Shown here one piece after another: positions 2,588-56,377 of a stretch of DNA of 64,000 nucleotides. The stretch covers positions 1 through 64,000 of the forward strand of contig JBDRKL010000010.1 of assembly GCA_043814055.1 (NCBI GenBank), read 5' to 3'. This DNA comes from an archaeon. Its GTDB lineage: Archaea; Undinarchaeota; Undinarchaeia; Undinarchaeales; JBDRKL01. The translations under genes and the position numbers were made by a program. The notes beneath the pieces are model-generated. The model was not told the DNA's origin and searched no databases. It was given only the letters and a program-made list of their open reading frames with translations. Position 1 is the stretch's first letter. Each line of letters opens with the position of its first letter.

Positions 2588-5500
2588 ATGGATTCAAAAA
2601 AACAACCAGGTTTCAAAATTTTGTTAGCGTTTGGTATCATCATGGTTTCTATGATGCTGATTCCAACTGTTGCCGCTCTGGATAATCTTCCAGCGGTAAC
2701 TCCGATGGTTCTTGATGGCTACGTAACCAAAGATGGGAGTACTGCTGTCTCTGACAACACCTCAGTACTAGCCTATGAAACAGAGGATACTACTCACAAT
2801 AATAGTGTTCTCACTCAATTAGGCGTTGGTTACTTCTCAGCAACCCTAGATCAGGATGAACTTGCTGCAGGCAGCAACATCACGGTCTATGCTAACAACA
2901 CCACGCACTACGGTACCAACACCACAGCATGGAACGAAGGCGCATCTCAAGTAATAAATGTTACAATGAATCTAGCATTGCCCGATGAAACAGATCCAAC
3001 AGTCAATGCAATGTCACCTGGTAATTCTACTGAAGGGAACAGTGAGAACTGGACAACTAGCTACACTGTAGATTTCCAATACAATACTTCTGATTATTAT
3101 ACTGTCAGTTCATGTGAGCTCGTGATAAATGACTCAGTTATGAACACAAGCGGCTCAATAACTGAGGACACCCCTCAGAATCTCACCTACAACTTTGTCT
3201 ACCAGAACAATTCAAAAGCCTATTCTTGGTATGTCAACTGCACAGACAATTCTAGTAATGAGGGGCAGAGCACTGTTTATTACTTCAATCTCGAAGTTCC
3301 AAACGCAGCCCCAATTCTCAGCGCCGCAGTGATGGACTACACAAACGAAACAGGCATACCGTCAAATTCAACTTACCCAACATTCACGAACCAAACCGTT
3401 CTGTTCAACGGCTCTGCAACAGATGCTGACAACGCAATCTGGTACATGATAGTCTGCAACACTACTGCGCTGAATGAATCTACCAATTTGACTTGCAACG
3501 AAACCTCATACTGCAACGGCAGTGTGGTTTCTACAGGCGCAGCATCAACCTGCACTCTTGCGCTTGACACTACCTACACAGCTGAAAACTACACATGGGC
3601 TGCATTTGCCTGCGACGGCTCAAACTGCTCCTTGTTCAACAACACATACGCTCCATTCCACGTGAACCACATGCCATCTCCAAGCGTTGCTCCAACAGTT
3701 AATAATACCGACCCCAGAGTTGCGGACACATTGAACTGCACAGCAGGAACTTTTGCAGACTCTGACTCAGGCGACACTGAAACCACTGACTCCAGGGAAT
3801 TCAATTGGTACAACAACACAAGCGCGCTAAGTGGCCAGACCAACGCAACCCTAAGCCTGTCCGGAGCAGGCCTGCTCAAGGGCAACAACATAACCTGCGC
3901 AATCAAGGTATACGACAACCACGGGTTTGCGGCAGCAGACTACAACAACTCCTCAAACTATGCTGTGATAAACAACACAGCGCCAAGCGTATCTGCAATA
4001 AGCATAAACGGCGCCGCTACAAGTGTGGTCTACAGCGAAGACCTGACCTGCACAGCCACAGCAACCGACGCTGATACTGCGGACACGATCCAGTACAACT
4101 TCACATGGTACCTGAATGACACAGTGTTCAACGTAAGCACTGGTTACTCAGCTAACAATTATACCATAATGCCCAGCGACAACACCACAATAAACGAGAC
4201 TTGGAACTGCAGCGTGATAATCAAAGATGATTCTGATGCCACAGACACTCTGGCCTCAAGCAACGTAACCATAGTGAACGCAACGGTTTACAACGCGTCA
4301 TTAACCGCCAACGCAAGTGCAACAACCGTTGCCCAGAGCACAACCGCGTCATACACTGTAAATCTCACAAACAGTGGAAATCAGATAGACAACTACACGG
4401 TAACCTTGACAAATACAAACAGCGCAGACTCTGCAACAATAAACGGCAGCTCCAGTCAAAATGTCACCGACTTGGATGCAGGCGGAGTAGTGCAGTTCGT
4501 AGTGAATGTTTCAGACGCAACTGTGGGTGAATACAACGTTACCTTAACTGCAGTATCTGCAGGAGGGGTGACCAACGGTAGCGACAGCAACGCTACCCAA
4601 GTCCTCACAACAACCGTGGTCGACCTAACCAACCCAACTGTTTCAGGAATAAGCTGCTCGCCAAACCCAGCAACAATGGAAAGCGGCTTAGTTACTTGTA
4701 CTGCAACAGTGGCTGATAACATTGCCATAAGCGCAGTTTCAGCCAACATAACCCACCCAGGCAGCTCGGTCACAGAGCAGTCCGGCACAGTAGGCGGTTC
4801 AGTTACCTTCTCAAACCTGAATGAGTCAGGTATTTACACAGTAAAATACATTGTGAACGATACTGCTGGCAATAATAACACTACTGAAACCACGACATTC
4901 AACGTGAGCTACGGAACAGCAACACCAACCATAACTGTAACTCCAAACTCAACACCTGCGTACGGCTCCTGGTTCTTCGTGAACGCGACCATAGCTGCAA
5001 CAATCGGCGACCTTTACGAGTGCAACGCGACAGTTTACTCAAGCAACGAGGCGCTTGCTAATACCAGCACGGTGCACACACTTGGCGGCGGCAACGCAAC
5101 TAACGGCACATCAATAACCAACACAACCTGGAACTTCACTATGGCAAACTCAACAGGAACTGTGACAATAACTGTCAACACGACCTGCGTGAACGGAACT
5201 GCAAGCACTGATGCTGAAAATGTTGTAGTGACTGACTATGTTGCGCCTATTGTAACCGCAATCTCACCGAACAACACGACCATAAACATGAGCGTTGCAA
5301 CGTTCTCCTACAACGTGACGGACATATCAACCATAGCAAGCTGTGAGCTGATATTGAACAACAGCGTTGCCCTGACCGATACCACTATCACAAAGGACAC
5401 CACGCAGTACTTCTACAAGACTGAGCTTGTTGATGGTGCCTACAACTGGAGCATAAACTGTACTGACAATTCAACCAACTCTGTAGAAGGCGCGTCCGCA

Positions 5501-6592
5501 ACAGGAAACATCACTGTGTCAATAAACACAAGCGACCTTGACGATGACGATGTGAATGACTCCTCAGATGCTCTCATTGGAACGAACACCACAATAAACA
5601 GCTCCACAATTCGAAACCCTGTTATATATGTCAACGACAGCGGCAACCTGACACAGGATTTCCACGGTCAGAACTTCTACGTGAATGTTACTGACAATGG
5701 AACACTGCGAATGAGGTTCAACTGGACCTTTAGCAACTCCAGCCCGCTGAACCTATTCAACATCCGTATTGACACGCAGGCAGAAGGCTCGGCTGCGGGT
5801 GGAATAATCGTGGGCAACCTCAGCGTGTCAAAGACAGTCTACGTGGACAACATATCTGGCGCAAATTCAGTGTGCATAAAAGACTCGACAACAGCAACGT
5901 CGCTTGCGTTGGTTTCATCAGGTTGCACCGCAGCTGACGAAACTCAAGTGAATTGCACAGGAACCAGCGTAACCGGTCCAAGTGGGCAGACATACACCTG
6001 CACTGGCTCAGGCGGAATCTACACAGTATCCGGCGTGACGCACTCGGCAGTTACTGAGCAGGCATACGTCTCTCCTGATGCACCAGCAGTACCAACTACG
6101 TCAGGCGGCGGCAGCGGCTCACCTGGTCCATCCTTCCTGCTAAATCCTGGCAAGAAGGTTACAATGAACCTCTATGCAAACCAGAAGGTTTCTTACAGGG
6201 ACGTGAACGACGAGCCGCACACAATCAGCCTGAACGAGGTTGGCGCGGATTATGTAGTGTTTGAATTTGAGTCCGAGCCTTTTGCAGTGACGTTCAACCT
6301 TGGGCAGTCCAAGAAAGTGGATGTGAACAAGGACGGCGTGGATGATATGGAAATAACGCTTGACGCAATCTCTGGAACAAAAGCTACGGTGACCTTTGAC
6401 ATCTACGAGCTGAATGCGCCTGAAGTCGTGCCTGAACCTGAGCCTGAGCAAGAAGTTCAGGAAATAGAGACAGCGCCGCCTGAAGCTGAAGCGCCTGAAG
6501 AGGCTGGAAGCGGAATGCTTGTCGTGCTCGCACTTGTAATAATAGTGCTTGCGGCTGGAATCGCCTGGAAGCTCGGCTACATCAAAAAATAG
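2588..6592 (+). CDS. Large S-layer-like / Ig-repeat surface glycoprotein
   Basis: SD GAGGTGA, signal peptide, very dense N-x-S/T sequons, Ig-like repeats (YxWxxNCTDN), PE-rich stalk and C-terminal TM followed by KK. Confidence 0.85.
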   Translation: MDSKKQPGFKILLAFGIIMVSMMLIPTVAALDNLPAVTPMVLDGYVTKDGSTAVSDNTSVLAYETEDTTHNNSVLTQLGVGYFSATLDQDELAAGSNITVYANNTTHYGTNTTAWNEGASQVINVTMNLALPDETDPTVNAMSPGNSTEGNSENWTTSYTVDFQYNTSDYYTVSSCELVINDSVMNTSGSITEDTPQNLTYNFVYQNNSKAYSWYVNCTDNSSNEGQSTVYYFNLEVPNAAPILSAAVMDYTNETGIPSNSTYPTFTNQTVLFNGSATDADNAIWYMIVCNTTALNESTNLTCNETSYCNGSVVSTGAASTCTLALDTTYTAENYTWAAFACDGSNCSLFNNTYAPFHVNHMPSPSVAPTVNNTDPRVADTLNCTAGTFADSDSGDTETTDSREFNWYNNTSALSGQTNATLSLSGAGLLKGNNITCAIKVYDNHGFAAADYNNSSNYAVINNTAPSVSAISINGAATSVVYSEDLTCTATATDADTADTIQYNFTWYLNDTVFNVSTGYSANNYTIMPSDNTTINETWNCSVIIKDDSDATDTLASSNVTIVNATVYNASLTANASATTVAQSTTASYTVNLTNSGNQIDNYTVTLTNTNSADSATINGSSSQNVTDLDAGGVVQFVVNVSDATVGEYNVTLTAVSAGGVTNGSDSNATQVLTTTVVDLTNPTVSGISCSPNPATMESGLVTCTATVADNIAISAVSANITHPGSSVTEQSGTVGGSVTFSNLNESGIYTVKYIVNDTAGNNNTTETTTFNVSYGTATPTITVTPNSTPAYGSWFFVNATIAATIGDLYECNATVYSSNEALANTSTVHTLGGGNATNGTSITNTTWNFTMANSTGTVTITVNTTCVNGTASTDAENVVVTDYVAPIVTAISPNNTTINMSVATFSYNVTDISTIASCELILNNSVALTDTTITKDTTQYFYKTELVDGAYNWSINCTDNSTNSVEGASATGNITVSINTSDLDDDDVNDSSDALIGTNTTINSSTIRNPVIYVNDSGNLTQDFHGQNFYVNVTDNGTLRMRFNWTFSNSSPLNLFNIRIDTQAEGSAAGGIIVGNLSVSKTVYVDNISGANSVCIKDSTTATSLALVSSGCTAADETQVNCTGTSVTGPSGQTYTCTGSGGIYTVSGVTHSAVTEQAYVSPDAPAVPTTSGGGSGSPGPSFLLNPGKKVTMNLYANQKVSYRDVNDEPHTISLNEVGADYVVFEFESEPFAVTFNLGQSKKVDVNKDGVDDMEITLDAISGTKATVTFDIYELNAPEVVPEPEPEQEVQEIETAPPEAEAPEEAGSGMLVVLALVIIVLAAGIAWKLGYIKK

Positions 6593-15734: not shown

Positions 15735-17200
15735 TTGTTGATTCTCCACCGCGCCCCATCTTTCCCATCTTCCAGAATTATTCCAAGCTTTTCAAGCTTT
15801 TTGCGAATCTCATCGCTCTTTCCATAATCTTTCTCCCTGCGCGCGGTTTCTCTCAAGTCAATCAGCGCTTTCATATTCTCTTTAAAACTCTTCTTTTTAA
15901 CATCAAATTGCCTGGCGAGCTCAAGAACCGCGTGCTCGGTGTCTTCGCTGACCTCGTTCTTCTTCAGAATCTTAAAAATTGAGTCAAGCTCTTCAAGCGT
16001 TTCAAGGCCTGCCTTCAGCGTTGCCTTTGATGCTCCGCCCTCTGCATTCCCACCTTCCATCTGCTTATTTAAAATTTTGCTCAGGTCAAATAGCTTGGAC
16101 ATAGCTATTGAGGTGTTGAAATCGTCATCCATCGCGGCTTTGAACTCTTTCTTCACTTTCTCAAATTCTTTTAAGACTTTTTCATCAGCTTTTCCAGCCT
16201 TTGCTTTCTCAAGCGCCTGCCTCAGATTATCATAAGTGTTCTGCAGTTTTGACAGGCTCACAGCTGCCTGCTCAAGGTAAACATCCGCAAAGTCAATCGG
16301 CGAGCGGTAGTGAGTTGAAATCAAAAAGAATCTGATGGTTTTAGCGTCATATCGCTTGAGCAGCTCGCGGATTGTTGAGAAATTCTTGAGCGACTTGCTC
16401 ATCTTGGCCTTGTTCACAGTGATGAAACCATTATGCAGCCAATATTTCACGAATTTCTTCCCTGTTGCGCACTCTGCCTGCGCTATCTCGTTGCTGTGGT
16501 GCGGAAATATCAAATCCTGCCCACCGCCGTGTATATCAAACGTCTCTCCGAGGTACTTTGAGCTCATTGCTGAGCATTCTATGTGCCAACCTGGTCTCCC
16601 CTTACCCCAAGGTGAATCCCAGCTAATCTCCCCTTCTTTAGCCCGCTTCCAGAGCGCGAAGTCCAGGGGTTCGTCCTTCAGCGGGCTTGGTTCAATCCTT
16701 TTCCCAGCTTCCATCTCCTCAATCTTCATCCCTGAGAGCTTGCCGTAGTCTTTGAATTTGTTAACTGAGAAATAAACATCCCCGCCTGCTTCGTAGGCGT
16801 AGCCTTTCTCTATGAGCTTTTCAATGAGCTTAATCATCTCCCCAATGTGCTCGCTCGCTTTTGGATATTTGTCAGCTCGCTCTATGTCAAGAGAGTCCAT
16901 ATCCTTGAAATACTCTTCTGCGTATTTCTTTGAAAGCTCAAGCGGTGCAATTTTCTCTTCCTTTGCGCGGTTTATGATTTTGTCATCAACATCTGTGAGA
17001 TTTTGGATGTAAACAACCTTGAAGCCGCTGTATTCCAAATAGCGGTGAATAACATCAAACGCGACATAAGCGCGGGCGTGCCCTAGGTGCGAAAGGTCAT
17101 AAACCGTTGGTCCGCAGACATACATCCAAACCTGCCCTGGTTTAACTGGCTTGAAAGCTTCCTTCTTTCTGCTCAGGGTGTTGTAGAGATTTAAGGTCAT
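15731..17200 (-). CDS. cysS: Cysteine--tRNA ligase
   Basis: MYVCGPTVYD, HLGH (HIGH), PGWHIECSAM and KMSKS. Start is ATG 17200 (ATGA overlap with the toxin stop) or 17206. Confidence 0.97.
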   Translation of the reverse strand: MTLNLYNTLSRKKEAFKPVKPGQVWMYVCGPTVYDLSHLGHARAYVAFDVIHRYLEYSGFKVVYIQNLTDVDDKIINRAKEEKIAPLELSKKYAEEYFKDMDSLDIERADKYPKASEHIGEMIKLIEKLIEKGYAYEAGGDVYFSVNKFKDYGKLSGMKIEEMEAGKRIEPSPLKDEPLDFALWKRAKEGEISWDSPWGKGRPGWHIECSAMSSKYLGETFDIHGGGQDLIFPHHSNEIAQAECATGKKFVKYWLHNGFITVNKAKMSKSLKNFSTIRELLKRYDAKTIRFFLISTHYRSPIDFADVYLEQAAVSLSKLQNTYDNLRQALEKAKAGKADEKVLKEFEKVKKEFKAAMDDDFNTSIAMSKLFDLSKILNKQMEGGNAEGGASKATLKAGLETLEELDSIFKILKKNEVSEDTEHAVLELARQFDVKKKSFKENMKALIDLRETARREKDYGKSDEIRKKLEKLGIILEDGKDGARWRINN

Positions 17201-17475
17201 AGCCATTCATATCCTTTGCCGCGGTGGAATATCTTTGTTATCATTACTGTGCTATTTTCTACCATGTATAATATTCTATAATTTCCAACTCTTAACCTAT
17301 ATAAGTCCTCTCCCTTCTTAACGCCCTTGAGCATTTTGATGTCAGTGCCCGACCTGCTTAGGAAGGGGTCTTTTTGCAGCTGCTCAGTTCCTTTTTTTAT
17401 GCGCTGACCTGTCTCATAGTCAAGCCCTGTTATAAACTTCACAGCAGTGCTGCTTATGTTGACTTTGTAGGCCAT
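17197..17475 (-). CDS. relE: RelE/ParE-family type II toxin
   Basis: YRLRVGNYRILY and KIFHRGKGYE RelE signatures. Confidence 0.88.
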   Translation of the reverse strand: MAYKVNISSTAVKFITGLDYETGQRIKKGTEQLQKDPFLSRSGTDIKMLKGVKKGEDLYRLRVGNYRILYMVENSTVMITKIFHRGKGYEWL

Positions 17476-19087: not shown

Positions 19088-19276
19088 ATGCCCTGCGACA
19101 ACCAAGAAAACGCTGACTGCCCGTGCACATACTCCTGCGAAAAGCACGGCAAGTGCTGTGAGTGCCTGAAATATCACTTGGGTAGAAACGAGCTTCCAGC
19201 CTGCTGTTTCTCATCTGAAACGGAGAAAACTTATGACCGCTCCTTCCAAAAATTCGCAGAAGACAAAGGGCTCTAA
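19088..19276 (+). CDS. Small Cys-rich protein, DUF6485-like
   Basis: CPCTYSCEKHGKCCECLKYH...ELPACCF...EKTYDRS, recognised from memory of the family. Start 19088 preferred over 19070 on TATA spacing. Confidence 0.75.
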   Translation: MPCDNQENADCPCTYSCEKHGKCCECLKYHLGRNELPACCFSSETEKTYDRSFQKFAEDKGL

Positions 19277-19907
19277 ACCCAAAGTTATCTGCCTGTTCTC
19301 ATCCGGCATAGACAGCCCTGTAGCCGCGCACTTATTGCTTGAGCAGGGCATTGAAGTCATTCCTGTGTTCTGCTACAATTACCCGTATATGGACGAGGAA
19401 GAAATCCAGAATGTCAAGCTTCTCCTGCACACGCTCTCAAAGCTCCACAAGGTCAAGCTCACGGCATATATGATCAAGCACGGCCCGTCCCTGATGGAGT
19501 TCAGCGAGCACTGCGAGCCAAAGGCGATGTGCATTCTTTGCAAGCGGATGATGCTTCGCACTGCTGAGAAAATAGCTAAAAAAGAGAAAGCAATCGCAAT
19601 TATGACCGGTGAAAATCTCGGGCAGGTTGCGTCGCAAACTCTTGATAATTTAATTGTAAACCACGCAGCTGTAAAGCTTCCTGTGCTAACTCCGCTTCTC
19701 GGATTTGACAAGGAGGAGATTGTGCAGATTGCGAAGAAAATCAAGACCTACAACCACTCAATCGCGCCGACAAGCGGCTGCAGCGCAGTTCCAAGGTATC
19801 CTTTGACACACGCCCGGATTGAGCAAATTCAGGAAGAAGAGCGCAATGTGAATGTTAAAAAGCTGGTTGACGCGTCGTTCAAGAGCATCAAGGCGGTGAA
19901 ATATTGA
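19233..19907 (+). CDS. thiI: ThiI-family tRNA sulfurtransferase, PP-loop catalytic half
   Basis: SSGIDSPVAA, CILCKRMM, TGENLGQVASQTLDN, PLLGFDKEEI and a third Cys (GCSAVP). Confidence 0.88.
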   Translation: MTAPSKNSQKTKGSKPKVICLFSSGIDSPVAAHLLLEQGIEVIPVFCYNYPYMDEEEIQNVKLLLHTLSKLHKVKLTAYMIKHGPSLMEFSEHCEPKAMCILCKRMMLRTAEKIAKKEKAIAIMTGENLGQVASQTLDNLIVNHAAVKLPVLTPLLGFDKEEIVQIAKKIKTYNHSIAPTSGCSAVPRYPLTHARIEQIQEEERNVNVKKLVDASFKSIKAVKY

Positions 19908-20758
19908 AAAAGAAATCTGCTCCTAAACCAGAGCTGAAGCCAAGCACAATCCTTGTTCGCTTCGGTGAAATCGCCCTGAAGAGCCCAAGAGTCCGCCGCA
20001 AGTTCGCCAGCCGCTTGGTGGGTAATATGAGGCGAATGCTTCCTGGACATCCTAGGATAAAAAAGGAATGGAGCCGAGTATTTGTTGAAGCCGGCGACCC
20101 TGAAGTGCTCTCTGCGCTGACTAAAATATTCGGCATAGTCTCGGTTTCGCCTGCCTATGTGTGCGCGCCAACAATGCCTGAGATACAGAAGCTCGCGCTC
20201 AAATTGGCAAAAGAGCATATCAAAAAGACAGATTCATTTGCAATCCGCGCCCGCCGCGCAGGAACGCACAAGTTCACAAGCCAGGATATTGGAATAAAAA
20301 TTGGGGATGCAGTGCGCAAAGCATCAGGCGCCAAGGTCAATTTGGGAAAGCCAACAAAAGAGCTCTTCATAGAGGCGCGGCAGGACCACGCGTATGTGTT
20401 CATTGAGTCAATTAAGGCACCGGGCGGTCTGCCCTACGGCGTTGAAGGCAAAGTGCTTGGGCTTTACGAAGGCTCAGCTGAGTTCAAATTAGCAACTTAC
20501 CTGCTCGCGAAGCGCGGATGCGAGATTGAACTGCTCGGCAATGCTCCAGCTGATTTCATGAAAGAGTGGCTCGGCGGGGTCAAAGTGCATTCAAAAATGC
20601 CAAATGATGACAGATTAAAAGCAGTATACACCGCGGACACAATTAAAGACATTAAAAAGTTCGCAGCGTTTGACAAGAAATATGAGTTAGAAGTTTTCCG
20701 CCCACTGTTGGGTTTAAATGAATCTGCAATCAAGAAAGCTTTAGGAATACTCCACTAA
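19904..20758 (+). CDS. ThiI N-terminal/THUMP protein with degenerate PP-loop domain
   Basis: ILVRFGEIALKS, SFAIRARRAG and GPG-like APGGLPYGVEGK. SGGxDS is replaced by YEGSAE. TTG start overlaps the upstream stop. Confidence 0.8.
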   Translation: MKKKSAPKPELKPSTILVRFGEIALKSPRVRRKFASRLVGNMRRMLPGHPRIKKEWSRVFVEAGDPEVLSALTKIFGIVSVSPAYVCAPTMPEIQKLALKLAKEHIKKTDSFAIRARRAGTHKFTSQDIGIKIGDAVRKASGAKVNLGKPTKELFIEARQDHAYVFIESIKAPGGLPYGVEGKVLGLYEGSAEFKLATYLLAKRGCEIELLGNAPADFMKEWLGGVKVHSKMPNDDRLKAVYTADTIKDIKKFAAFDKKYELEVFRPLLGLNESAIKKALGILH

Positions 20759-25516: not shown

Positions 25517-26386
25517 TTATTTCTCTTTCTCCCAATTCTTGTCAATCTGCGCCTGTATCTGCGCAATCTGCTCTTCTGAAAGGTGCTTGAACCTGCGCTT
25601 CTGCATAGCGAAATAATCAGCAATCGGCTTCTTCGGCTCCGGCGGCTTCACAGTTACCCTGCGCTCGCCGTTCTCCTGCTCCCACATCTTCCACAGCCCG
25701 GTCTCAACAACCAGGCGCGAAATCTCAACAGTCTTGTTTGGAGCCAAGCCCCAGCCAGGCACGCACGGCGCGTAAACCAGTATGAATTTTGAGCCCTTGT
25801 GGGTCATAGCCTTCTTGATTTTTGCCTGGAAGTCAGGTAAATATCCGATTGAGGCAGTAGCTACGTAAGGAATCTCGTGCGCAGCCACTATATCCGCGAT
25901 TGGCTTCTTAAACTCGGTCTTGCCTTTTATCTCACTGCCGACCGGCGAAGTGGTTGTCCACGCGCCGAACGGGGTTGAACCGGAGCGCTGGATTCCAGTG
26001 TTCATGTATGCCTCGTTGTCATAGCACAAATACAAAACATCCTCGTTGCGTTCAAGCATCCCTGAGAGCGCGCCGAACCCGATATCATAAGTCGCACCGT
26101 CCCCTGCGATTACAGAAACTGTGGTGTGGTCGTTGCCCTGAGCGCGGAGCGAGTGCACGATTCCAGAAGCCACGGATGCAGTGTTCTCAAAGAGCGTGTG
26201 GATATAAGGGACATTGAAAGCGCTTCTTGGGTAGTTTGAGCTTATAATTTCTGAGCAGCCTGTTGCGTTAACTATGACTGTGTCTTTTCCTGTTGTCTTG
26301 ATGAAGTGCTTTATCGCAATGGCCATACCGCAGCCTGCGCACGCGGTGTGCCCGGATTCAAAAAGCTTTTTCTCTTTAGCTGCCAT
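25517..26386 (-). CDS. porB: Pyruvate/2-oxoacid:ferredoxin oxidoreductase beta subunit
   Basis: GHTACAGCG, ATGC, GDGATYDIG and DNEAYMNTGIQRS. Confidence 0.95.
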   Translation of the reverse strand: MAAKEKKLFESGHTACAGCGMAIAIKHFIKTTGKDTVIVNATGCSEIISSNYPRSAFNVPYIHTLFENTASVASGIVHSLRAQGNDHTTVSVIAGDGATYDIGFGALSGMLERNEDVLYLCYDNEAYMNTGIQRSGSTPFGAWTTTSPVGSEIKGKTEFKKPIADIVAAHEIPYVATASIGYLPDFQAKIKKAMTHKGSKFILVYAPCVPGWGLAPNKTVEISRLVVETGLWKMWEQENGERRVTVKPPEPKKPIADYFAMQKRRFKHLSEEQIAQIQAQIDKNWEKEK

Positions 26387-26516
26387 TTCAATGCCTCACC
26401 GCTTTCATCAGCTTTGAACACAATGAATCTCCAGCAATATTATTTTTTACAGTCTCTGGAGTTTCATTGTGAATGAACGCGAAGCTGCTTGACAAATTTA
26501 CTGCTTTGCGTCTCAT
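26387..26516 (-). repeat. Intergenic repeated element, copy A (contains 42-aa ORF MRRKAVNL..., 26516-26388)
   Basis: Shares ATGAGACGCAAAGCAG, AGCTTCGCGTT, TGTGTT, CAAAGCTGATGAAA and TTGAAATG with 34926-35065; contains hairpins. Confidence 0.75.
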
Positions 26517-27637
26517 TATAGCCACCCCTGGTGCTCTTTTCCATCACTTATCTTTTTCATCAAGCTGTTAATATCTCTCTTGCGCACGTCCTTGCCGCCG
26601 AGTCCGCCAACAAAGCTTGACATCGCGACATCAGAATCTTTCATCGCGTTCGCAACATCGGAGTAAACCGGAGGCAGCGCTCCCATGCTGTATGCTTTTT
26701 CAAACACCACAGCGCCTTTCTTGCCCTCGAGTGCCTTGGAGATTTCCTCGTATGGGAAAGGCCTGTATGAGCGTATCTTGAGTATGCCGTACTTGCTGTC
26801 TGATTCCTCTACTGCGTCGCGCGCGGTTCCGATTGTTGAGCCCATGCTTATGAAAATATAATCCGAGTCGTCCATATTGTAGCCCTGGATAAGCCCGTCC
26901 CCGTAGCCGCGGTCGAACTGCTTCTCAAACTTCGCAGCCTCTTTCTTGATGTTCTCTTTTGCCTTGAGCAAATCCTTGTGAACATCTTCTCTAAAGTTCT
27001 GGTAATCTGCAGGCATTGCGTAAGCGCCCATTGTCATTGGATTTTCAGTGTCAAGCTTGACATCCATCTTGAGCTTTGGCAGGTATTTCCGAACGTCCTC
27101 AACTTCTGGAATCTCCACTGGCTCAACAACGTGCGTGAGTATGAATCCATCCATGCAGACCATTGCCGGGAGCATAACCTGCTCTGAAACTTTGAAAGCC
27201 TGAACCGTGTTGTCAATAGCCTCCTGCGAGCTCTCAGAGTAAAGCTGAATCCAGCCTGAGTCGCGCTCTGCAATTGAGTCCTGCCAGTCGTTCCAGATGT
27301 TCAACGGCGCGCTCAGCGCGCGATTTCCGACCACCATTGTAATCGGAAGTCTCATTCCAGCTGCACAGTAAACTGGCTCGTGCATCAGCGCAAGCCCTTG
27401 TGAAGATGTTGCTGTGAAAGTCCTGCCGCCTGCGGCTGCAGCGCCTATGCAGGCGCTCATTGAGCTGAACTCCTGCTCAACCGCGATATAGCTCTTTATT
27501 CGGCCGTCTGCATGCAATTGAGCAAGATGCTCTGCAATGTGTGTGCTCGGCGTGATTGGATAGCACGCCACAACATCTGGCTCGCAATTTGCCACAACCT
27601 CTGCCACTGCCTCGGATGCCTCCATGGTAATTTTCAT
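26516..27637 (-). CDS. porA: Pyruvate/2-oxoacid:ferredoxin oxidoreductase alpha subunit
   Basis: YPITPST, TATSSQGLALMHE, NRALSAPLNIW and DGFILTH. Confidence 0.95.
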   Translation of the reverse strand: MKITMEASEAVAEVVANCEPDVVACYPITPSTHIAEHLAQLHADGRIKSYIAVEQEFSSMSACIGAAAAGGRTFTATSSQGLALMHEPVYCAAGMRLPITMVVGNRALSAPLNIWNDWQDSIAERDSGWIQLYSESSQEAIDNTVQAFKVSEQVMLPAMVCMDGFILTHVVEPVEIPEVEDVRKYLPKLKMDVKLDTENPMTMGAYAMPADYQNFREDVHKDLLKAKENIKKEAAKFEKQFDRGYGDGLIQGYNMDDSDYIFISMGSTIGTARDAVEESDSKYGILKIRSYRPFPYEEISKALEGKKGAVVFEKAYSMGALPPVYSDVANAMKDSDVAMSSFVGGLGGKDVRKRDINSLMKKISDGKEHQGWL

Positions 27638-28074
27638 TTGTCCCTCTGATTCGGGTATACTTCTTCCCTCTTTTTTATATTTCTAACCAGCTTTCCGTTT
27701 TTATCTATCAAGTGAGGATCTTCGTCTGTTTTGCCATTAGAATTAATATCTGGTAATGAGATTAAGAGATAAGTAATACCGCCAGTTCTCTTATGTAGGT
27801 ACCTCGCTTCCTCTTCTTTAACATCAAAGCTCATAAAAGCTGCAACAGAGTATTTTAATTTGCTTCTAGCTGATTGGGTTTCTTCCAATTTATCTAATCC
27901 GTCATCTTGCAAAATTTGTGGTGTGTAAGGTTGTGCCCTATATTTTTTTTCTGGTGTTGAACCCAGCAAGCGCTCCTCTTGTGGCGTAAGGTATTTCAAA
28001 TTTGGCCTCACATTTGGTTTTATTTTTCCTAAAAGTTGAATATAGTCACTATCAACAAAATCAAGCCTACTCAT
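27634..28074 (-). CDS. Orphan hypothetical protein inside the por operon
   Basis: ATG 28074 overlaps the porD stop and its own stop overlaps the porA ATG; visibly AT-richer than the flanks. Confidence 0.6.
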   Translation of the reverse strand: MSRLDFVDSDYIQLLGKIKPNVRPNLKYLTPQEERLLGSTPEKKYRAQPYTPQILQDDGLDKLEETQSARSKLKYSVAAFMSFDVKEEEARYLHKRTGGITYLLISLPDINSNGKTDEDPHLIDKNGKLVRNIKKREEVYPNQRDK

Positions 28075-28349
28075 TTCTCTTCCTCCTCCATTTTGATGCA
28101 CTTCTTCGGGCATTCGTTCGCGCATATGCCGCAGCCCTTGCAGTAATCATAATTTATCTTTGGGAAAGTGCGCTCAGCTGGCTTTTTCTCCTGCTCAGAG
28201 CCACTGATGCAATCCTCAGGGCAGTACAAGTGGCAGATTCCGCACTTGATGCACTCTGGTTCGTTCACCACAGGCCTGTGGGTCCTCCAACTGCCAGTCT
28301 GGTTCTCTATGCTGGTTCCTGGTTTTGAGTTTGGTGCGTTTACGCTCAT
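28071..28349 (-). CDS. porD: Oxidoreductase delta subunit (2x[4Fe-4S])
   Basis: TGSWRTHRP, CIKCGICHLYCP and YCKGCGICANECP. Confidence 0.95.
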   Translation of the reverse strand: MSVNAPNSKPGTSIENQTGSWRTHRPVVNEPECIKCGICHLYCPEDCISGSEQEKKPAERTFPKINYDYCKGCGICANECPKKCIKMEEEEK

Positions 28350-29027: not shown

Positions 29028-29169
29028 TGGCGCCGGAGTCAGGATTTGAACCTGAAAGGGCCGAAGCCCATCCGCTTTCTAACTTTAAGAAGTTCGATTA
29101 TAGTTTTTCACTATTGCTCACTTCTCAAAGTTTCGAGGCGGACGCGTTACCGGGTTCTGCCACTCCGGC
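29028..29169 (-). tRNA. tRNA-Ser(CGA) with ~55-nt intron at 37/38 (29131-29077)
   Basis: Acceptor GCCGGAG/CUCCGGC, G73 and encoded CCA. Anticodon arm UCCGC-CUCGAA^A-GCGGA, long variable arm GGGC-UUCG-GCCC, T loop UUCAAAU. Relaxed BHB with intron helix CUUUGAGAAG/CUUCUUAAAG. Confidence 0.92.
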
Positions 29170-31580: not shown

Positions 31581-31633
31581 CTGTGTTTTCCCTTTTGTGA
31601 ACTGTTTTATACTTGTTTGTGCATTGTTTGTGT

Positions 31634-32755
31634 ATGGAGAAGAGGCCTGTTGTTGAGCCGGGTGAGCTGATTAGGGCGCCGGCGCTGACCGAGGACGAGT
31701 TGCTTTCTTTTAGGGAGACTTGGGAACGCCGAGAGAGGAAGCCGAAGGTGAAGGGCATTGAGCGCTACAAGACTATAGAAGGAATGCTCGGTCTGAAGAA
31801 ATCTTACATCAAGGTAATGCTGCAGATGCTCGAGGGGGACTTCCCGGACATAAGAAGCATGGAGCCTGAGAAAAAAGCAAAGGCACTGCTGAATTTCTTA
31901 AAGCCGACTGAAATCATAAAAGGCGAGCTGACCGAAGAAAAATGGCAAGAATATGCGAAACAGCACGGCACTTGGATACTCAAAAAGCCCGTGGGCCACC
32001 TTGACAACCACCCCACACTCCTCGCGCTGCTCAGGACCGGCTGGGGCAACTGCATGGCACGCGCCCTATTCTTTAGGGTGCTCGCGCGGCACATAGGCCT
32101 TGACGACAAGACGCAAGGCACCAGATGCAGGGTTGCACTGATGCCAGAACACGCAGTAGTTTTCCTAACCATAAATGAGAAGAAAGTCCTCGCAGACCCG
32201 ACGCACGGCGTGCTTGGCAAAGAGCCAGCCCATATGTATTACCCCCTGAAAGAGATGTACGACGAGGCCTTTGAAGTTGAGGATGTTTACGCGGTTTATT
32301 GGCTGAAGGCGAGCCTTGCAGAAAAGCCAAAGATTGGCGTGAAGTACTACACCCTGTTCCACAAAAAATATCCAGACTATGCCGAGTGCCTGAACAACAG
32401 AGGCATCCTGTACAAGACTATAGGTGAGCTTGGCAAAGCACTCAACGACTACAACAAAGCCCTCCAATTAAAACCAAACGATGCCGAGTGCCTGAACAAC
32501 AGAGGCAACCTGTACAAGACTATAGGTGAGCTTGGCAAAGCACTCAACGACTACAACAAATCCCTCCAATTAAAACCAGACTATGCCGAGTGCCTGAACA
32601 ACAGAGGCATCCTGTACAAGACTATAGGTGAGCTTGGCAAAGCACTTGCTGACTTGAAAAAGGCATTAGCCCTTTTCAAGGCGCGCGGGCAAGAGCAATA
32701 TGCAGAAATCGCTGAACTAAACATTATGGGTGTAAAATCTAAAATGAAACAATGA
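31634..32755 (+). CDS. Transglutaminase-like domain plus TPR repeats
   Basis: GWGNCMARA...PEHAVV...LADPT is a Cys-His-Asp triad; three TPRs (AECLNNRG.LYKTIGELGKAL). Confidence 0.78.
   Translation: MEKRPVVEPGELIRAPALTEDELLSFRETWERRERKPKVKGIERYKTIEGMLGLKKSYIKVMLQMLEGDFPDIRSMEPEKKAKALLNFLKPTEIIKGELTEEKWQEYAKQHGTWILKKPVGHLDNHPTLLALLRTGWGNCMARALFFRVLARHIGLDDKTQGTRCRVALMPEHAVVFLTINEKKVLADPTHGVLGKEPAHMYYPLKEMYDEAFEVEDVYAVYWLKASLAEKPKIGVKYYTLFHKKYPDYAECLNNRGILYKTIGELGKALNDYNKALQLKPNDAECLNNRGNLYKTIGELGKALNDYNKSLQLKPDYAECLNNRGILYKTIGELGKALADLKKALALFKARGQEQYAEIAELNIMGVKSKMKQ
32372..32646 (+). repeat. 102-bp tandem repeat (~2.7 copies) encoding TPRs
   Basis: Near-identical units start at 32372, 32474 and 32576. 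Confidence 0.9.
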
Positions 32756-33759: not shown

Positions 33760-34929
33760 ATGCAGGAAAATCCTTTTTCAGATTCAGTGCCAACGCACTT
33801 TGCCATAGCGGCAACTGTCTACACAAAGCCGCTCACCGAGCTTTCAGACACGACTAAATCAAACAAGTCCAAGCTCATACTTGTTACAGGCGGATACGGC
33901 AACGGCAAATCCCACGCGCTTGAGCGGCTCAAGAACGACTTGAACATTAACGAGAAGAAAAAGCTCGCAATATACTGCTCAGCTTTCGCGACCAAGAGTT
34001 TGCAGACAATTTACGAGCAGGTATGCTCTGAGCTTTCAAGCGGAAAGCTGAATAAGTTCGCTTACACCACGGACGGACGCGCGTTTATGACTAACAAGGG
34101 CATTCCATCCAAGATTATAGACATATTCTACAACAAGGAGGCAATCCGACCTGCCGAGGATATCAAGGCAAACTTCACCTACGGCAAGATTGTCGCGTCA
34201 TCCTCTGATGTTATTCATTTTTTCTGCGCTCTCTCTTTGCTCGTGGACCAGTTCGTGCTGCTCATGGACGACATAGAGGAAGCGACTACGATGGAGCAGA
34301 ACGAGCGCAAGATGTTCTTCGGGCACATCCGCGCCCTCTACGACGAGGCAGTTAGAAAGGAACTGAGCATGATAGTTGTGATGACACTCACGCTTGACAA
34401 GCTTGAGCTGCTCAAGAATGACCGAATGGACCTCTACGAGCGAATGGACAAGGTAATTAAGTTTGACAAGCTCTCCCCTAAGGAATTTGAAAATATTATT
34501 GAGAAGCGGCTTGAGATAAGCGCGCTTGATGACATCAAGGTTGACAAAAGCGTAATAAAACAAATTTGGGGCTATTCTGACAACATCCGCGGAATGCTGA
34601 ACATACTCCGCGACCTTCTTGAAGAGGTCTACAACAAGGGTGAGAAGAAAATCACTACAGTTGTGCTTCCTGAAAAAACCGTGTCTCAGCTCATAGAGTC
34701 ACAGAAGATACGGGACAGCTACAAGCCTGCTGATGATTTAATCCTCAACATTCTTGAATCTGAGGATGGCCTCTCTGCAGAGGCAATCATAGAGCGCTCA
34801 AAGAAGAGCGGCTCCTGGATACGGCACCGCCTCGCAGATTTGGTTAATGATGGCGTGCTGCTCAAGGAGCAGGTCGCTAGGAACAGACCTGCAAAATACA
34901 TACTAAGCAAGGTGGAGAAGAAACAATGA
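33760..34929 (+). CDS. AAA+/P-loop ATPase with C-terminal winged-helix
   Basis: Walker A GGYGNGKS, Walker B LLMDDIEE, sensor-like NIRGML and HTH GLSAEAI...IRHRLADLVNDG. Confidence 0.8.
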   Translation: MQENPFSDSVPTHFAIAATVYTKPLTELSDTTKSNKSKLILVTGGYGNGKSHALERLKNDLNINEKKKLAIYCSAFATKSLQTIYEQVCSELSSGKLNKFAYTTDGRAFMTNKGIPSKIIDIFYNKEAIRPAEDIKANFTYGKIVASSSDVIHFFCALSLLVDQFVLLMDDIEEATTMEQNERKMFFGHIRALYDEAVRKELSMIVVMTLTLDKLELLKNDRMDLYERMDKVIKFDKLSPKEFENIIEKRLEISALDDIKVDKSVIKQIWGYSDNIRGMLNILRDLLEEVYNKGEKKITTVVLPEKTVSQLIESQKIRDSYKPADDLILNILESEDGLSAEAIIERSKKSGSWIRHRLADLVNDGVLLKEQVARNRPAKYILSKVEKKQ

Positions 34930-35066
34930 GACGCAAAGCAGAGCTTCGCGTTAATTCCAAAGCTGATGAAATAGGAGAAACTTTGAAATCATACACAAAA
35001 TCCCTAGAAATTGATGAGCTTTGTGTTGATTCCAAAGCTGATGAAATAGGAGAAACTTTGAAATGA
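34926..35066 (+). repeat. Intergenic repeated element, copy B (46-aa ORF MRRKAELR...; internal 36-bp direct repeat)
   Basis: ATTCCAAAGCTGATGAAATAGGAGAAACTTTGAAAT occurs at 34954-34989 and 35029-35064; homologous to 26387-26516. Confidence 0.8.
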
Positions 35067-35749
35067 GAGCAACGATTACCCTGAATAAAAAACCAATGAC
35101 TGAGAAGACCTACTGCAACCTGGTGAATGCATTCACCTCGGAAGGCTACACGCCAATTATTGACCCGCGCCAGTTTGACTCGCCAATTTCAATCAAGGCG
35201 AGGTTCAAGGCAAAGGAAGAAAAAGTGCGGTTCATAGAGTTCTCGCCGCAGATGGAGCTGAGCATAGAGCACGAGCTCACCAAGTCCAAGGCGGAGAAGC
35301 AGCTTGACGCGCTGAGCACAAAACTGGAGGAGCTTATGGTGGTTGGGGATGCAAAAGTTGAGGACTATGAGTTGGCTACTTTGCAGATGATATCCCAGCA
35401 TAACATGCTCCAGAAGAACCCAGTGGTGTTTCCTGCAAACGAGGCCGAGGCAAAGCTCTTTGAGGGGCTTGAGCAGAAGAAAATATTTTCCAAGGCATTC
35501 GCGATAAAGTGCCCAAAATGCAATCGCGCGTTTATGGTTCCGCACAACAAGATAAAGCTTGAATCCGATAAGATGTTCTGCGTTGGCTGCGAGGCGTGGG
35601 TTTCTATACAGAATGAAACGCTTGCGTACATAGTCAACGAGGAATATATGGCAGTCATAGACACGGTCTGGGACAAAGTTCAGAAGCTAATTCGGGCGAG
35701 CTGGCGCGAAGTCATCAAGCGCGGAATACCAATAATAAAAGTGGAGTAG
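35063..35749 (+). CDS. Hypothetical protein with CxxC...CxxC zinc ribbon
   Basis: CPKC...CVGC. Confidence 0.7.
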   Translation: MRATITLNKKPMTEKTYCNLVNAFTSEGYTPIIDPRQFDSPISIKARFKAKEEKVRFIEFSPQMELSIEHELTKSKAEKQLDALSTKLEELMVVGDAKVEDYELATLQMISQHNMLQKNPVVFPANEAEAKLFEGLEQKKIFSKAFAIKCPKCNRAFMVPHNKIKLESDKMFCVGCEAWVSIQNETLAYIVNEEYMAVIDTVWDKVQKLIRASWREVIKRGIPIIKVE

Positions 35750-43937: not shown

Positions 43938-45083
43938 ATGGACATACTCCTGTCGCTTGCAATGCTGCTTTTCGCTGCCAAGATTGGCGGTTTTATCAGC
44001 AAGAAGATAGGTCAGTCAGCGGTCCTTGGGGAAATTGTTGCTGGCGTCATAATAGGGCCGAGCGCCTTCGGTCTCTTCACATATACTGAGTTCTTCAGCA
44101 CGTTCTCTGAGCTGGGCATAGTTTTTCTCATGTTTTTGGTCGGGCTGGAGCTAAACATCAAATCATTTGAGCACTTTTTGAAAAGGGGCGCCCTAATAGC
44201 CCTGGTCGGGGCTTTCCTGCCATACTTAGTTGGGATTGCAGTAGCATCCCTGCTGTTCCATTGGAGCGCCCTGCAGAGCTTTTTGTTTGGGGTCATACTC
44301 ATGGCTTCCAGTGTCACCATAACAGCAGCAATCCTAAGGGATTTGAAGAAATTGAAAAGCCCGATCGGTCTCACGATACTTGACGCGGCAGTTGTTGATG
44401 ACGTGATTGGCATTACTATGCTGACCTTTTTGCTGGCTGTGACAAAAGCGACCACTTTCTCAATAATAGATTTTGGCGGCATAATGCTAAAAGTTCTCGT
44501 ATTCTTCATCGGCGTCTTCCTCGCAGGCCCGCAGCTCGCAAAGTATGTTATTGCGCTAGGGGAGCATCTTGACCTCAGGGTTGAGGAGGGGCATCTCTCA
44601 GTAATAATAATATTAATCCTAACCCTGGCCATACTTGCCAATGCTATCGGGCTCTCCATAGTGGTGGGGGCTTTCCTCGCAGGCATGATTCTGGACAAGA
44701 GGCGCGTAAAAGCAGCCGGCCACGAAATATACAGCATGGCCTATGGGCTGTTCGTCCCTGTGTTCTTCGTGCTTATCGGGAGCTACGTAGTAGTCGGTAC
44801 CCTGTTGAGTAATCTGCCGCTAATATTCTTGATTGTGGCAATAGCAATAATCACAAAGCTGGTGGGCGCCGGGCTAGGTGCCAGGCTCTCCAAGATGAAC
44901 TGGCGCCAATCCCTGATTATCGGCGTCGGGATGATACCCCGCTGTGAGGTCGCTCTCATCCTGGCACTTATGGGCACGACACTCCACATAATAGACACTG
45001 AGATATACTCCGTACTTGTCACTGCAATTGTCTTGACAGCCATAGTAACTCCAATATTGCTCAAGGCGGTCATGAGGGACTAA
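43938..45083 (+). CDS. Cation:proton antiporter (CPA2 family)
   Basis: GEIVAGVIIGPS, FLVGLE, AAVVDDVIG, GAFLAG and PRCEVAL. Confidence 0.9.
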   Translation: MDILLSLAMLLFAAKIGGFISKKIGQSAVLGEIVAGVIIGPSAFGLFTYTEFFSTFSELGIVFLMFLVGLELNIKSFEHFLKRGALIALVGAFLPYLVGIAVASLLFHWSALQSFLFGVILMASSVTITAAILRDLKKLKSPIGLTILDAAVVDDVIGITMLTFLLAVTKATTFSIIDFGGIMLKVLVFFIGVFLAGPQLAKYVIALGEHLDLRVEEGHLSVIIILILTLAILANAIGLSIVVGAFLAGMILDKRRVKAAGHEIYSMAYGLFVPVFFVLIGSYVVVGTLLSNLPLIFLIVAIAIITKLVGAGLGARLSKMNWRQSLIIGVGMIPRCEVALILALMGTTLHIIDTEIYSVLVTAIVLTAIVTPILLKAVMRD

Positions 45084-45751
45084 TGGTAAAATGGCATTCA
45101 CTTTCTGAGGACGACACAATTGAAAAAATGAATTCAAGCAAAAGCGGCTTGGACTCAAAAGAAGCAGCCGAGCGGCTCAAGGTATATGACCCAAACCTTC
45201 TTGAGGTCGGCGACAAAGTTCCTGCAGACGCGCGCATAATTGAGCAGAGCAACCTGCACCTTGACGAGGCAATGCTTACAGGCGAGTCAGTGCCGGTATG
45301 CAAGACTGCAAAGGCAATCAATAAAGAAAATGCAATCCTGGTCGAGCGCAAGAACATAGCCCATATGGGCACTGTGGTCACGAACGGCTGCTGCGAAGCC
45401 GTTGTAATCGGCACGGGAATGAAAACAGAGATGGGCAAGATTGCAAAGCTGATACAGGATGTTGAGGAAATGCAGACGCCTCTCCAAGTTAAGCTTCGCG
45501 ACCTTGGAAAACAGCTTGGCATTATAATACTTGGAATCTGCGCGGTTGTGTTCTTCTCAAACAAGTTCCTGCTGCTTGCAATTGCAGTGTCACCAATAGG
45601 CCAAATATTGATACTTTACGTGCCCATGTTCCAGTTGGCATTCCACACAATGGCAATGGGCTTGTACGACTGGCTGCTCATCATAGCTGTTGCAAGCACT
45701 GGCTTCATCTATCTTGAAGCTTATAAAGCAATTAGTCTTAGGAGGAAGTGA
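45083..45751 (+). pseudogene. Internally deleted P-type IIA (Ca2+-type) ATPase remnant with intact reading frame
   Basis: N-terminal WHSL..GL...EAAERL..Y.PN, actuator GDKVPADAR/LTGES, TPLQ plus one TM, then C-terminal FSNKFL...ILYVP. No DKTGT or GDGxND. Confidence 0.8.
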
Positions 45752-55906: not shown

Positions 55907-56377
55907 ATGAAAAACACATACAACACTCAAATATTGGATATAATTCCTTCGACAGTAGATGAAGGGAAAGGGCGGATTATAGATGGTTATGTAAAATTAA
56001 AAATAAATGACATTGAATTTTGGGCTTTTGCTTTAGAGGATTGGAGAACAGGCAAATGGTCTCTGTCTATGAAGGGCTCCAATTTATCATTAAAACTTAG
56101 TTTTTTGAATCTAAACATACAAGCATCTGAAAAAAAGATTAAACAAATAGTTCCAATACCAAATCAGAAAAAACCCTGTGATTACATAATTTATGGCGAA
56201 GTTGTTGATAAAGTGCCTTCGTCAAAACTTCCTGATAAATATGAGCGACTTCAGGTTGGATGTGGCTTTGTAGTAGGTGGTGTCAGTGTAGCTAAGAATC
56301 AATTCAAAATCGGCGACTACATCCAGGCAGAAGGCCGCTTGGACGCTTACCGCGTGAAGGAGGCAGATGAACTCTAA
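55907..56377 (+). CDS. Small cytoplasmic protein, candidate immunity protein
   Basis: Directly downstream of the candidate toxin, no signal peptide, AT-richer than the flanks. Confidence 0.55.
   Translation: MKNTYNTQILDIIPSTVDEGKGRIIDGYVKLKINDIEFWAFALEDWRTGKWSLSMKGSNLSLKLSFLNLNIQASEKKIKQIVPIPNQKKPCDYIIYGEVVDKVPSSKLPDKYERLQVGCGFVVGGVSVAKNQFKIGDYIQAEGRLDAYRVKEADEL

Follow-up and report, generated by a model that had tools for sequence, protein, structure and literature searches.

How can extra DNA settle between two operon genes that are joined by overlapping stop and start codons without separating them in translation? The question is raised by a 64,000-nucleotide (nt) stretch of the archaeal contig JBDRKL010000010.1 (the window), in which two short and mutually similar segments lie at such joints. 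One of them (copy A) fills the spacer between porA and porB, and the other (copy B) lies between the gene for a STAND-like ATPase and an open reading frame (ORF) with weak zinc-ribbon matches (Table 1). An earlier note on this DNA had described the pair as a non-autonomous mobile or regulatory element that preserves translational coupling. The reading we favour, with a probability of about 0.5, is that the element is a small insertion acting as a coupling-preserving relay between operon genes.

Both junctions are co-directional, each copy has the orientation of its flanking genes, and each spans the distance from an ATG that overlaps the upstream stop codon to the ATG of the downstream gene. 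In copy A, the stop codon of porA (TAA, 26518-26516) shares an A with the ATG of a mini-ORF (26516-26514), giving the overlap TAATG; the mini-ORF ends in TGA (26390-26388), and the porB ATG (26386-26384) lies 1 nt beyond this stop. In copy B, both ends are ATGA overlaps, one formed by the mini-ORF ATG (34926-34928) with the upstream stop TGA (34927-34929), the other by the downstream ATG (35063-35065) with the mini-ORF stop (35064-35066). Deletion of the segment from ATG to ATG leaves TAATG at the first junction and ATGA at the second, so that the clean overlaps which the earlier note described after deletion can be read directly from the sequence at both places. Overlaps of this kind are frequent here, with a 4-nt stop/start overlap in 6 of the 32 co-directional pairs listed in the window. 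The two copies have a G+C content of 39% (A) and 36% (B), compared with 51-52% for porA and porB and 47% for the window.

The copies are collinear over their whole length with about 77% column identity, and in the alignment the similarity stops on the left side at AATG and on the right at ATG. Common to both are a 17-nt exact match at the head (AATGAGACGCAAAGCAG; blastn E 4e-4 within the window), an 11-mer (AGCTTCGCGTT), a 14-mer (CAAAGCTGATGAAA) that occurs once in A and twice in B, and an 8-nt tail (TTGAAATG). The global alignment score is 119.5, compared with 40.6 ± 6.2 for shuffled sequences, none of which reaches 119.5 in 500 trials. The middle part alone is poorly conserved and scores 37.0, compared with 22.7 ± 4.5 for shuffles (3 of 1000 reach 37.0); because even this part outscores shuffles, the alignment indicates homology of A and B from end to end. 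An indel of 14 nt after base 16, together with later indels, shifts the reading frame between them. Copy B also contains an internal tandem duplication of 49 nt (94% identical, 75-nt period), which amounts to 1.65 copies of a 75-nt unit. The period is in frame, and each of the three differences between the repeats is a transition and is non-synonymous in the frame of the mini-ORF. Copy A aligns over the same length as B, but its first unit is degenerate.

Each copy is bridged by a mini-ORF in one frame, and the other two frames of each copy contain 2-8 stops each. The predicted peptides (P0001 from A and P0002 from B) have only MRRKA in common, because the shared DNA is read in different frames after codon 5, and an open frame is retained in both copies despite this change of frame. 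With the interior shuffled, the frame reaches the tail without a stop in 4.9% (A) and 2.9% (B) of 20000 trials. The tail TTGAAATG always supplies one frame with a stop adjoining the start codon; if the gene begins with ATGA, a second frame has one too. Seven co-directional spacers in the window measure at least 100 nt, and the two bridged from upstream stop to downstream start are these copies only; two short spacers (25 and 42 nt) were flagged as well, with ORFs that extend 115 and 11 nt, respectively, into the next gene. The shared blocks, the short ORFs of 42 and 46 amino acids running from upstream stop to downstream start, and their divergence in frame after MRRKA had all been noticed in the earlier note; the alignment scores, the coordinates and the indels bear it out on each point. 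The tandem duplication in B and a 5' hairpin common to both copies go beyond it.

Signals for translation are found at both ends of the copies. An SD-like (Shine-Dalgarno-like) motif, GGTGAGG in A and AGGAG in B, precedes the downstream ATG by 7-10 nt and lies in the loop of a 3' module for which an imperfect 10-position stem with a 14-nt loop can be drawn (8 of 10 pairs in each copy, including one G.T wobble in A); a copy identical to the 3' module of B is present at 34955-34988. At the upstream ends, the last codons of porA contain GGGGTGG 5 nt before the mini-ORF ATG, and those of the ATPase gene contain GGTGGAG 8 nt before it, the position to be expected for a coupled downstream gene's SD. 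Of the 60 ORF starts listed, 22 have an SD-like motif before them, those of both downstream genes included. No run of four or more T occurs on the sense strand of either copy, so that an oligo-T terminator is not obvious. The loop of the central hairpin of A contains an A/T run, AAAAAATAATATT (26439-26451, minus strand; about 55-60 nt before the porB ATG), which could be a putative archaeal TATA-like promoter and has no equivalent in B. The hairpin in A to which the earlier note had drawn attention is present, with 15 of 16 positions paired, one A.A mismatch and a 21-nt loop. Its statement that the last loop holds the downstream SD needs a qualification: a 14-nt loop with the motif can be drawn in both copies, but in the minimum-energy fold of A part of the motif is paired in a weak 4-bp stem.

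We compared the porA/porB junction with 80 por loci among the matches listed (1.26 Mb), in which PorA is at most 51% identical and which do not include the window's own genome. The junction gap was defined from ORFs, using the first in-frame ATG of porB; projected starts are misled by longer PorB N-termini. In 70 of the 74 loci with adjacent porA and porB this ATG lies between -30 and +30 nt from the porA stop (34 overlaps and 36 gaps of 0-30 nt), and in three of the remaining four a GTG or TTG start lies within -32 to +13. Spacers reach 78 nt at most, compared with 129 nt here. The favoured reading includes the proposal that the segment is a small insertion at a start codon rather than an ancestral spacer, as this comparison would suggest.

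The same operon contains another unusual ORF. Between porD (28071-28349, Fer4) and porA lies a 146-codon ORF, orf146 (27634-28074, minus strand), which overlaps its neighbours by ATGA at both ends. Its G+C content is 36%, and that of its third codon positions (GC3) is 0.31, compared with about 0.54 for typical genes here; none of 20000 shuffles stays open. It belongs to no Pfam or NCBIfam family, and tblastn found no match to it in the 80 por loci, where the porD-porA gap is at most 116 nt in the 38 loci that have porD upstream of porA. The Atlas structure model has a predicted local distance difference test (pLDDT) value of 0.36, and the nearest Atlas clusters score at most 0.90, which is chance level. 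orf146 has the appearance of another foreign insertion, larger than copy A, at a stop/start overlap of this por operon.

The relay may work as follows. The element would have entered at the start codon, leaving the old SD and ATG to the mini-ORF and bringing a new SD and ATG for the gene. The upstream gene, porA or the ATPase gene, would terminate, the same ribosomes would re-initiate on the mini-ORF, and translation of the mini-ORF would melt the hairpins. Termination would then take place at or beside the downstream ATG and be followed by re-initiation there, aided by the SD of the insert. If ribosomes do terminate beside the downstream ATG and re-initiate at it, the insert should have little polar effect. 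The peptide itself would have no function, and only the openness of the frame would count.

Why a bridging frame might matter is suggested by the distances involved. In E. coli and Haloferax volcanii, according to a review, coupling fades at spacings above about 30 nt; an untranslated spacer of 130 nt would for this reason be expected to uncouple porB from porA, and the bridging ORF would restore short stop/start distances at both ends. Preservation of translational coupling, as claimed in the earlier note, is supported in that it fits the geometry: the overlap is restored, one frame is open, and an SD-like motif is available for the downstream gene. The stop/start geometry can be read off the DNA, and from it we infer how the ribosomes would behave. 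Less firmly, we suggest that the two segments are copies of one element of about 135 nt composed of hairpin-plus-tail units, that this element may be prone to unit duplication, as in copy B, and that it may represent a MIRU-like intercistronic repeat (see below for this mycobacterial class) of a DPANN archaeon resembling Micrarchaeota.

Several observations weigh against this reading. The relay may be unnecessary, because the SD of the insert could support independent initiation, and the expression side of the argument is deduced from geometry. The por operons compared reach only 51% PorA identity, and there is no empty site from a close relative among them. Only two copies are known in the 64-kb window, and they show no sign of recent activity, since several indels separate them. 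The openness tests are not independent of shared ancestry, and the in-frame 75-nt duplication inflates the significance for B. The codon-usage scores (A, 0.009; B, 0.229) are intermediate between those of real genes (0.41 ± 0.17) and those of off-frame windows (-0.50 ± 0.28; a biased control, because off-frame windows contain stops), so that the mini-ORFs are open but are not typical coding sequence. The sense strand of A folds well (z -3.0; none of 200 shuffles folds as well), but for that of B the fold is no improvement on shuffles (z -1.4; 17 of 200 fold as well). The RNAalifold consensus consists of nine invariant pairs with zero covariation, and beyond the 5' hairpin the structure is not conserved between the copies. 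Finally, the AATG at both ends of both copies, to which the earlier note had pointed, is indeed there, but it is weak evidence for a target-site duplication, because an A at position -1 of the ATG looks common here (roughly half of the listed start contexts, judged by eye and not counted by script).

Mobility of the element is not shown. The earlier note had proposed a search for many copies at gene junctions by BLASTN and a covariance model, and for a transposase with matching ends; its coupling part agrees with the geometry, whereas these searches give its mobile part no support. Fuzzy patterns, blastn-short, nhmmer and the covariance model R1 with filters off detected no further copy in the window, the next best matches after the two copies being at E 0.18 (nhmmer) and 13.2 bits (cmsearch, E 1.2). 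Two sites that resemble the 14-mer, at 16180 and 22175, lie inside the cysteinyl-tRNA synthetase and PEPCK-like genes and were rejected. No copy was found in the 80 por loci, or in phage or plasmid collections (blastn in distant mode). A Pfam scan of 55 window ORFs detected no transposase domain. Inspection by eye reveals no terminal inverted repeats: the left end, AGACGCAAAG..., does not recur in inverted form in the right one, ...TTGAAATG, and the inverted pairs detected in these regions join A to B or form hairpins within one copy, with none joining the two ends of one copy.

All this would suit another explanation, by which a junction spacer was copied once into another junction at ATG/ATGA microhomology, through gene conversion or illegitimate recombination; no element family would exist, and the SD and the open frames would be chance features or by-products. 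Stop/start overlaps are common in the window, and each openness test taken alone reaches only p of about 0.03-0.05. Such neutral duplication does not readily explain, however, that both copies are open in one frame although that frame differs, that both end exactly at a start codon with a correctly spaced SD, or that none of the five other long co-directional spacers is bridged. The low G+C content, found also in the neighbouring orf146 insertion, points to repeated events of this type. We regard neutral duplication as less probable than the relay insert, but as the most probable of the rivals.

A cis-acting structured RNA, serving as a processing, stability or protein-binding site or regulating the downstream start, would reverse the argument, since its fold would be conserved and the ORF incidental. 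The two copies have identical arms in the 5' hairpin and differ in its loop (17 nt in A, 3 nt in B), which places the frame-shifting 14-nt indel in a loop. There are three similar hairpins in all. Relative to the 5' hairpin, the second hairpin of B has one G-C pair changed to A-T and the A.C mismatch changed to A-T, and from this hairpin to its counterpart in A one A-T pair has changed to T-A, pairing being kept; these comparisons were made by eye, and the changes are too few for statistics. The good fold of A, and the SD in a hairpin loop adjoining the start codon, also agree with such an RNA. Against it stand the poor sense fold of B and the nine invariant pairs of the consensus, to which may be added that no Rfam family matches at the gathering threshold (the best weak matches have E 0.3-8) and that porB and the zinc-ribbon ORF have no evident ligand or pathway in common. 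We consider a structured RNA rather improbable.

An RNA gene on either strand, be it a C/D box guide RNA (sense) or a small antisense RNA, is a still poorer candidate. C/D box small RNAs (sRNAs) carry the boxes C (RUGAUGA), D' (CUGA), C' and D, usually with spacings or guides of about 12 nt. UGAUGA and CUGA motifs do occur at these gene junctions, as in archaeal C/D box sRNA genes, which can be co-transcribed with their neighbours, and in Pyrobaculum such genes adjoin or overlap protein genes and their C box can provide the upstream gene's stop codon (PMC6009581). Here, however, UGAUGA occurs only once in copy A and a C'/D' pair is missing from it, the box spacings are 13 and 20 nt, and the D-like box is UUGA, so neither the set of boxes nor their spacing is that of the known genes. 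The only Rfam hint, to the C/D family sR12 (35009-35062, 12.2 bits, E 3), is far below the gathering score of 38; a search of the whole window at gathering level, and of the two regions with E as high as 10, brought only two tRNAs to the gathering score. The folds of the antisense strands are indeed strong (A, -40.2 kcal/mol, z -4.8; B, -44.6 kcal/mol, z -6.3), but much of the antisense helix of B stems from its own tandem repeat. The G.U counts favour antisense in B (7 vs 1) and sense in A (5 vs 2), so that no strand is consistently preferred. An RNA gene thus has very little to recommend it.

Lastly, the mini-ORFs could be genuine genes for small proteins, or what decay has left of a TPR array once located after the STAND-like ATPase. 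The mini-ORF frame of B has a coding-like bias (G+C at codon positions 1/2/3 of 0.50/0.35/0.24) besides its codon-usage score, but A shows no positional bias, and the two peptides have only five residues in common. Neither mini-ORF has a relative of similar length among 5.8 billion protein clusters, where both are singletons from one contig of 149,432 bp, the source of the window's proteins; none was found in the Atlas, and comparison with Pfam and NCBIfam gave nothing. An exhaustive HMMER search with P0002 produced one match among 1.84 billion representatives, the 1091-residue P0003, whose regular repeats, TPR-like by eye, match residues 14-42 of P0002 with E 2e-9. This value is summed over three near-identical stretches, the best of which scores 28.9 bits, a level expected thousands of times by chance in such a library by our estimate, and we regard the match as chance. 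P0002 also resembles the window's own TPR protein weakly (47% over 15 residues); Pfam TPR models, however, do not match P0002 even at E up to 10, blastn against the TPR gene gives nothing beyond an imperfect 14-nt match, and the repeat period of 25 residues differs from the 34 of TPR units (102 nt in the local TPR gene). We find small-protein genes or TPR remnants barely credible. The local TPR gene (31613-32755) itself contains a tandem repeat with a 102-nt period (32372-32646, plus strand; 2.7 copies, 95% identical); these are recently duplicated TPR units. Replication-origin repeats, brought to mind by the P-loop and winged-helix-like features of the ATPase, were rejected, there being no Orc/Cdc6 match and the repeats being direct and inside a translated junction.

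With the relay insert as the preferred reading, the closest known counterparts are the interspersed repetitive units of mycobacteria (MIRUs), reportedly described by Supply et al. in 1997. MIRUs are described as elements of 40-100 bp, present in about 40-50 copies and transcribed in polycistronic mRNAs (Delihas 2011, PMC3184786). They carry tetranucleotide direct repeats, are known from empty and filled sites, and have ORFs whose ends overlap the adjacent genes (PMC3184786). At the rnc-fpg junction, for example, 279-358 bp separate the genes in M. tuberculosis, M. bovis and M. microti, compared with 6-54 bp in the other mycobacteria shown (PMC2734929).

The likenesses to the archaeal copies are several. 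MIRUs are short units in which tandem duplication is possible (PMC12548453, PMC3184786, PMC2734929). They lie between co-directional operon genes in the orientation of those genes, and their internal small ORF overlaps or abuts the upstream stop and the downstream start (-4 spacing); both copies here have these features. Insertion at start codons, four-base direct repeats at the ends (here AATG, of little weight) and orthologous junctions of a few bases in other species would complete the parallel. The differences are as plain. The host of MIRUs is an actinobacterium, and here it is an archaeon; MIRU units measure 40-100 bp and have G-C-rich internal repeats, whereas the present copies are AT-rich, 130-140 nt long and have a 75-nt unit. 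A mycobacterial genome is given some 40-50 copies in these accounts, compared with two in 64 kb here, and empty as well as filled sites are described there, whereas our junctions were compared with distant por operons only. We assume that the two have no sequence relationship, and common descent seems unlikely because the domain of life and the base composition are different. With moderate confidence, then, the element may be classed as an archaeal, sequence-unrelated intercistronic relay insert of MIRU type, alike in the features that can be read from two copies.

Other repeat classes would fit less well. Miniature inverted-repeat transposable elements (MITEs) are likewise small and AT-rich, lack coding capacity for a transposase and contain internal or subterminal hairpins. 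Hairpin-ended non-autonomous derivatives of IS200/IS605, which are small and AT-rich, have hairpins and lack a transposase, are similar in the same way. Both differ from the present copies, which have no terminal inverted repeats, no clear target-site duplication and no partner transposase in 64 kb. REP2 of Neisseria, and the similar upstream repeats of Borrelia, differ in that REP2 carries a promoter, sits upstream of genes and, in the account of PMC3184786, has no ORF that starts at an upstream stop and bridges two coupled genes. Rickettsia palindromic elements and other repeats fused in frame are alike in being tolerated in translated regions by virtue of an open frame, but they add residues to the host protein, whereas here a separate ORF lies between genes (PMC3184786). 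The C/D box sRNA genes discussed above likewise seem a poorer fit than MIRUs. Our literature searches brought no archaeal description of such an element to notice, which is not proof of absence; the nearest are C/D-box MITE-like elements (PMC6009581).

The features on which this analysis is based are collected in Table 1.

Table 1. Positions of the two copies, their internal features and the flanking genes within the 64,000-nt window.
Feature	Positions	Strand	Basis
Copy A, 130-nt spacer at the porA/porB junction	26387..26516	-	sequence, alignment
Copy B, 140-nt segment at the junction of the STAND-like ATPase gene and the 228-aa zinc-ribbon ORF	34926..35065	+	sequence, alignment
Mini-ORF A (P0001), 42 aa	26388..26516	-	only frame without internal stops
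Mini-ORF B (P0002), 46 aa	34926..35066	+	only frame without internal stops
Direct repeat of copy B, first copy	34941..34989	+	repeat family D7
Direct repeat of copy B, second copy, 94% identical to the first	35016..35064	+	repeat family D7
5' hairpin A, arms ACGCAAAGC / GCTTCGCGT, 8 pairs and one A.C mismatch, 17-nt loop	26477..26511	-	fold
5' hairpin B, arms as in A, 3-nt loop	34931..34951	+	fold
Central hairpin A, 16 positions, 15 paired, one A.A mismatch, 21-nt A/T-rich loop	26419..26471	-	fold
Second hairpin B, ACACAAA / TTTGTGT, 7 Watson-Crick pairs and one wobble, 16-nt loop	34993..35026	+	read from sequence
3' module A, CAAAGCTGATGAAA, 11-nt stretch with GGTGAGG, TTGAAATG; ends in the porB start codon	26386..26419	-	sequence, fold
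3' module B (second unit), AGGAG in loop; ends in the downstream start codon	35030..35063	+	sequence, fold
porA (POR_N and PFOR_II)	26516..27637	-	Pfam
porB (TPP_enzyme_C)	25517..26386	-	Pfam
P-loop ATPase, STAND-like, 389 aa	33760..34929	+	weak nSTAND1 / AAA_22 / KAP / AAA_16 matches
228-aa ORF, weak zinc-ribbon matches only	35063..35749	+	Pfam

The window was judged archaeal from an Rfam tRNA with a probable intron and from housekeeping genes (CysRS, IF5A, ThyX, FolD and acetyl-CoA synthetase), although many of its ORFs have no Pfam family. In a protein collection of 5.8 billion clusters the closest PorA proteins are 59-64% identical, the best being at 64%, and those that are named come from Candidatus Micrarchaeota or Micrarchaeia and one Ca. 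Iainarchaeum, all of which we take to be DPANN lineages. The STAND-like ATPase has a winged-helix-like tail, and the 228-residue zinc-ribbon ORF is followed by purN-like and then folC/Mur-ligase-like genes.

Elsewhere in the window, the Rfam tRNA at 29031-29169 (minus strand; 36.8 bits) spans 139 nt, compared with 71 model positions, and is probably an intron-containing archaeal tRNA; ARAGORN reported none there. An ORF for a 92-residue toxin of the ParE family (17197-17475, minus strand) shares 10 nt with the beginning of the cysteinyl-tRNA synthetase gene. ThiI is apparently split into two overlapping ORFs (19233-19907 and 19904-20758, plus strand), the first with the PP-loop ThiI domain and the second with the ferredoxin-like/THUMP part, an order which we take to be swapped relative to the usual one. 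A 222-residue ORF (45083-45751, plus strand), much too short for a full pump, nevertheless has matches to the Pfam models for the N-terminal, E1-E2 and C-terminal parts of P-type cation ATPases; its neighbours are genes for a Na/H exchanger and a Na/Ca exchanger. A 1334-residue protein at 2588-6592 has no Pfam matches at all, and a giant surface-type protein of more than 2544 residues (56367-63998, plus strand), with CARDB, PKD, Big_7 and laminin-G/lectin-like domains, runs off the end of the window.

On a wider view, which we hold to be doubtful and offer tentatively, a family of 'relay cassettes' that target start codons may exist in DPANN archaea as the first counterpart of MIRUs among archaea, spreading into the stop/start overlaps of essential operons with coupling kept; the same route may deliver larger foreign ORFs such as orf146. 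For annotation, the practical warning is that the 'hypothetical proteins' of 42 and 46 residues found at junctions of this kind probably lack a function as proteins. Should the relay reading be true, a very compact archaeal genome can take up selfish or foreign DNA in the middle of a tightly coupled, essential operon without polar damage, at the price of one frame kept open and a ribosome-binding site of its own. Mycobacteria and a DPANN archaeon would in that case have come to one solution independently, and the two junctions would provide a natural test case for termination-reinitiation in archaea that depends on an open frame alone and not at all on the amino-acid sequence.

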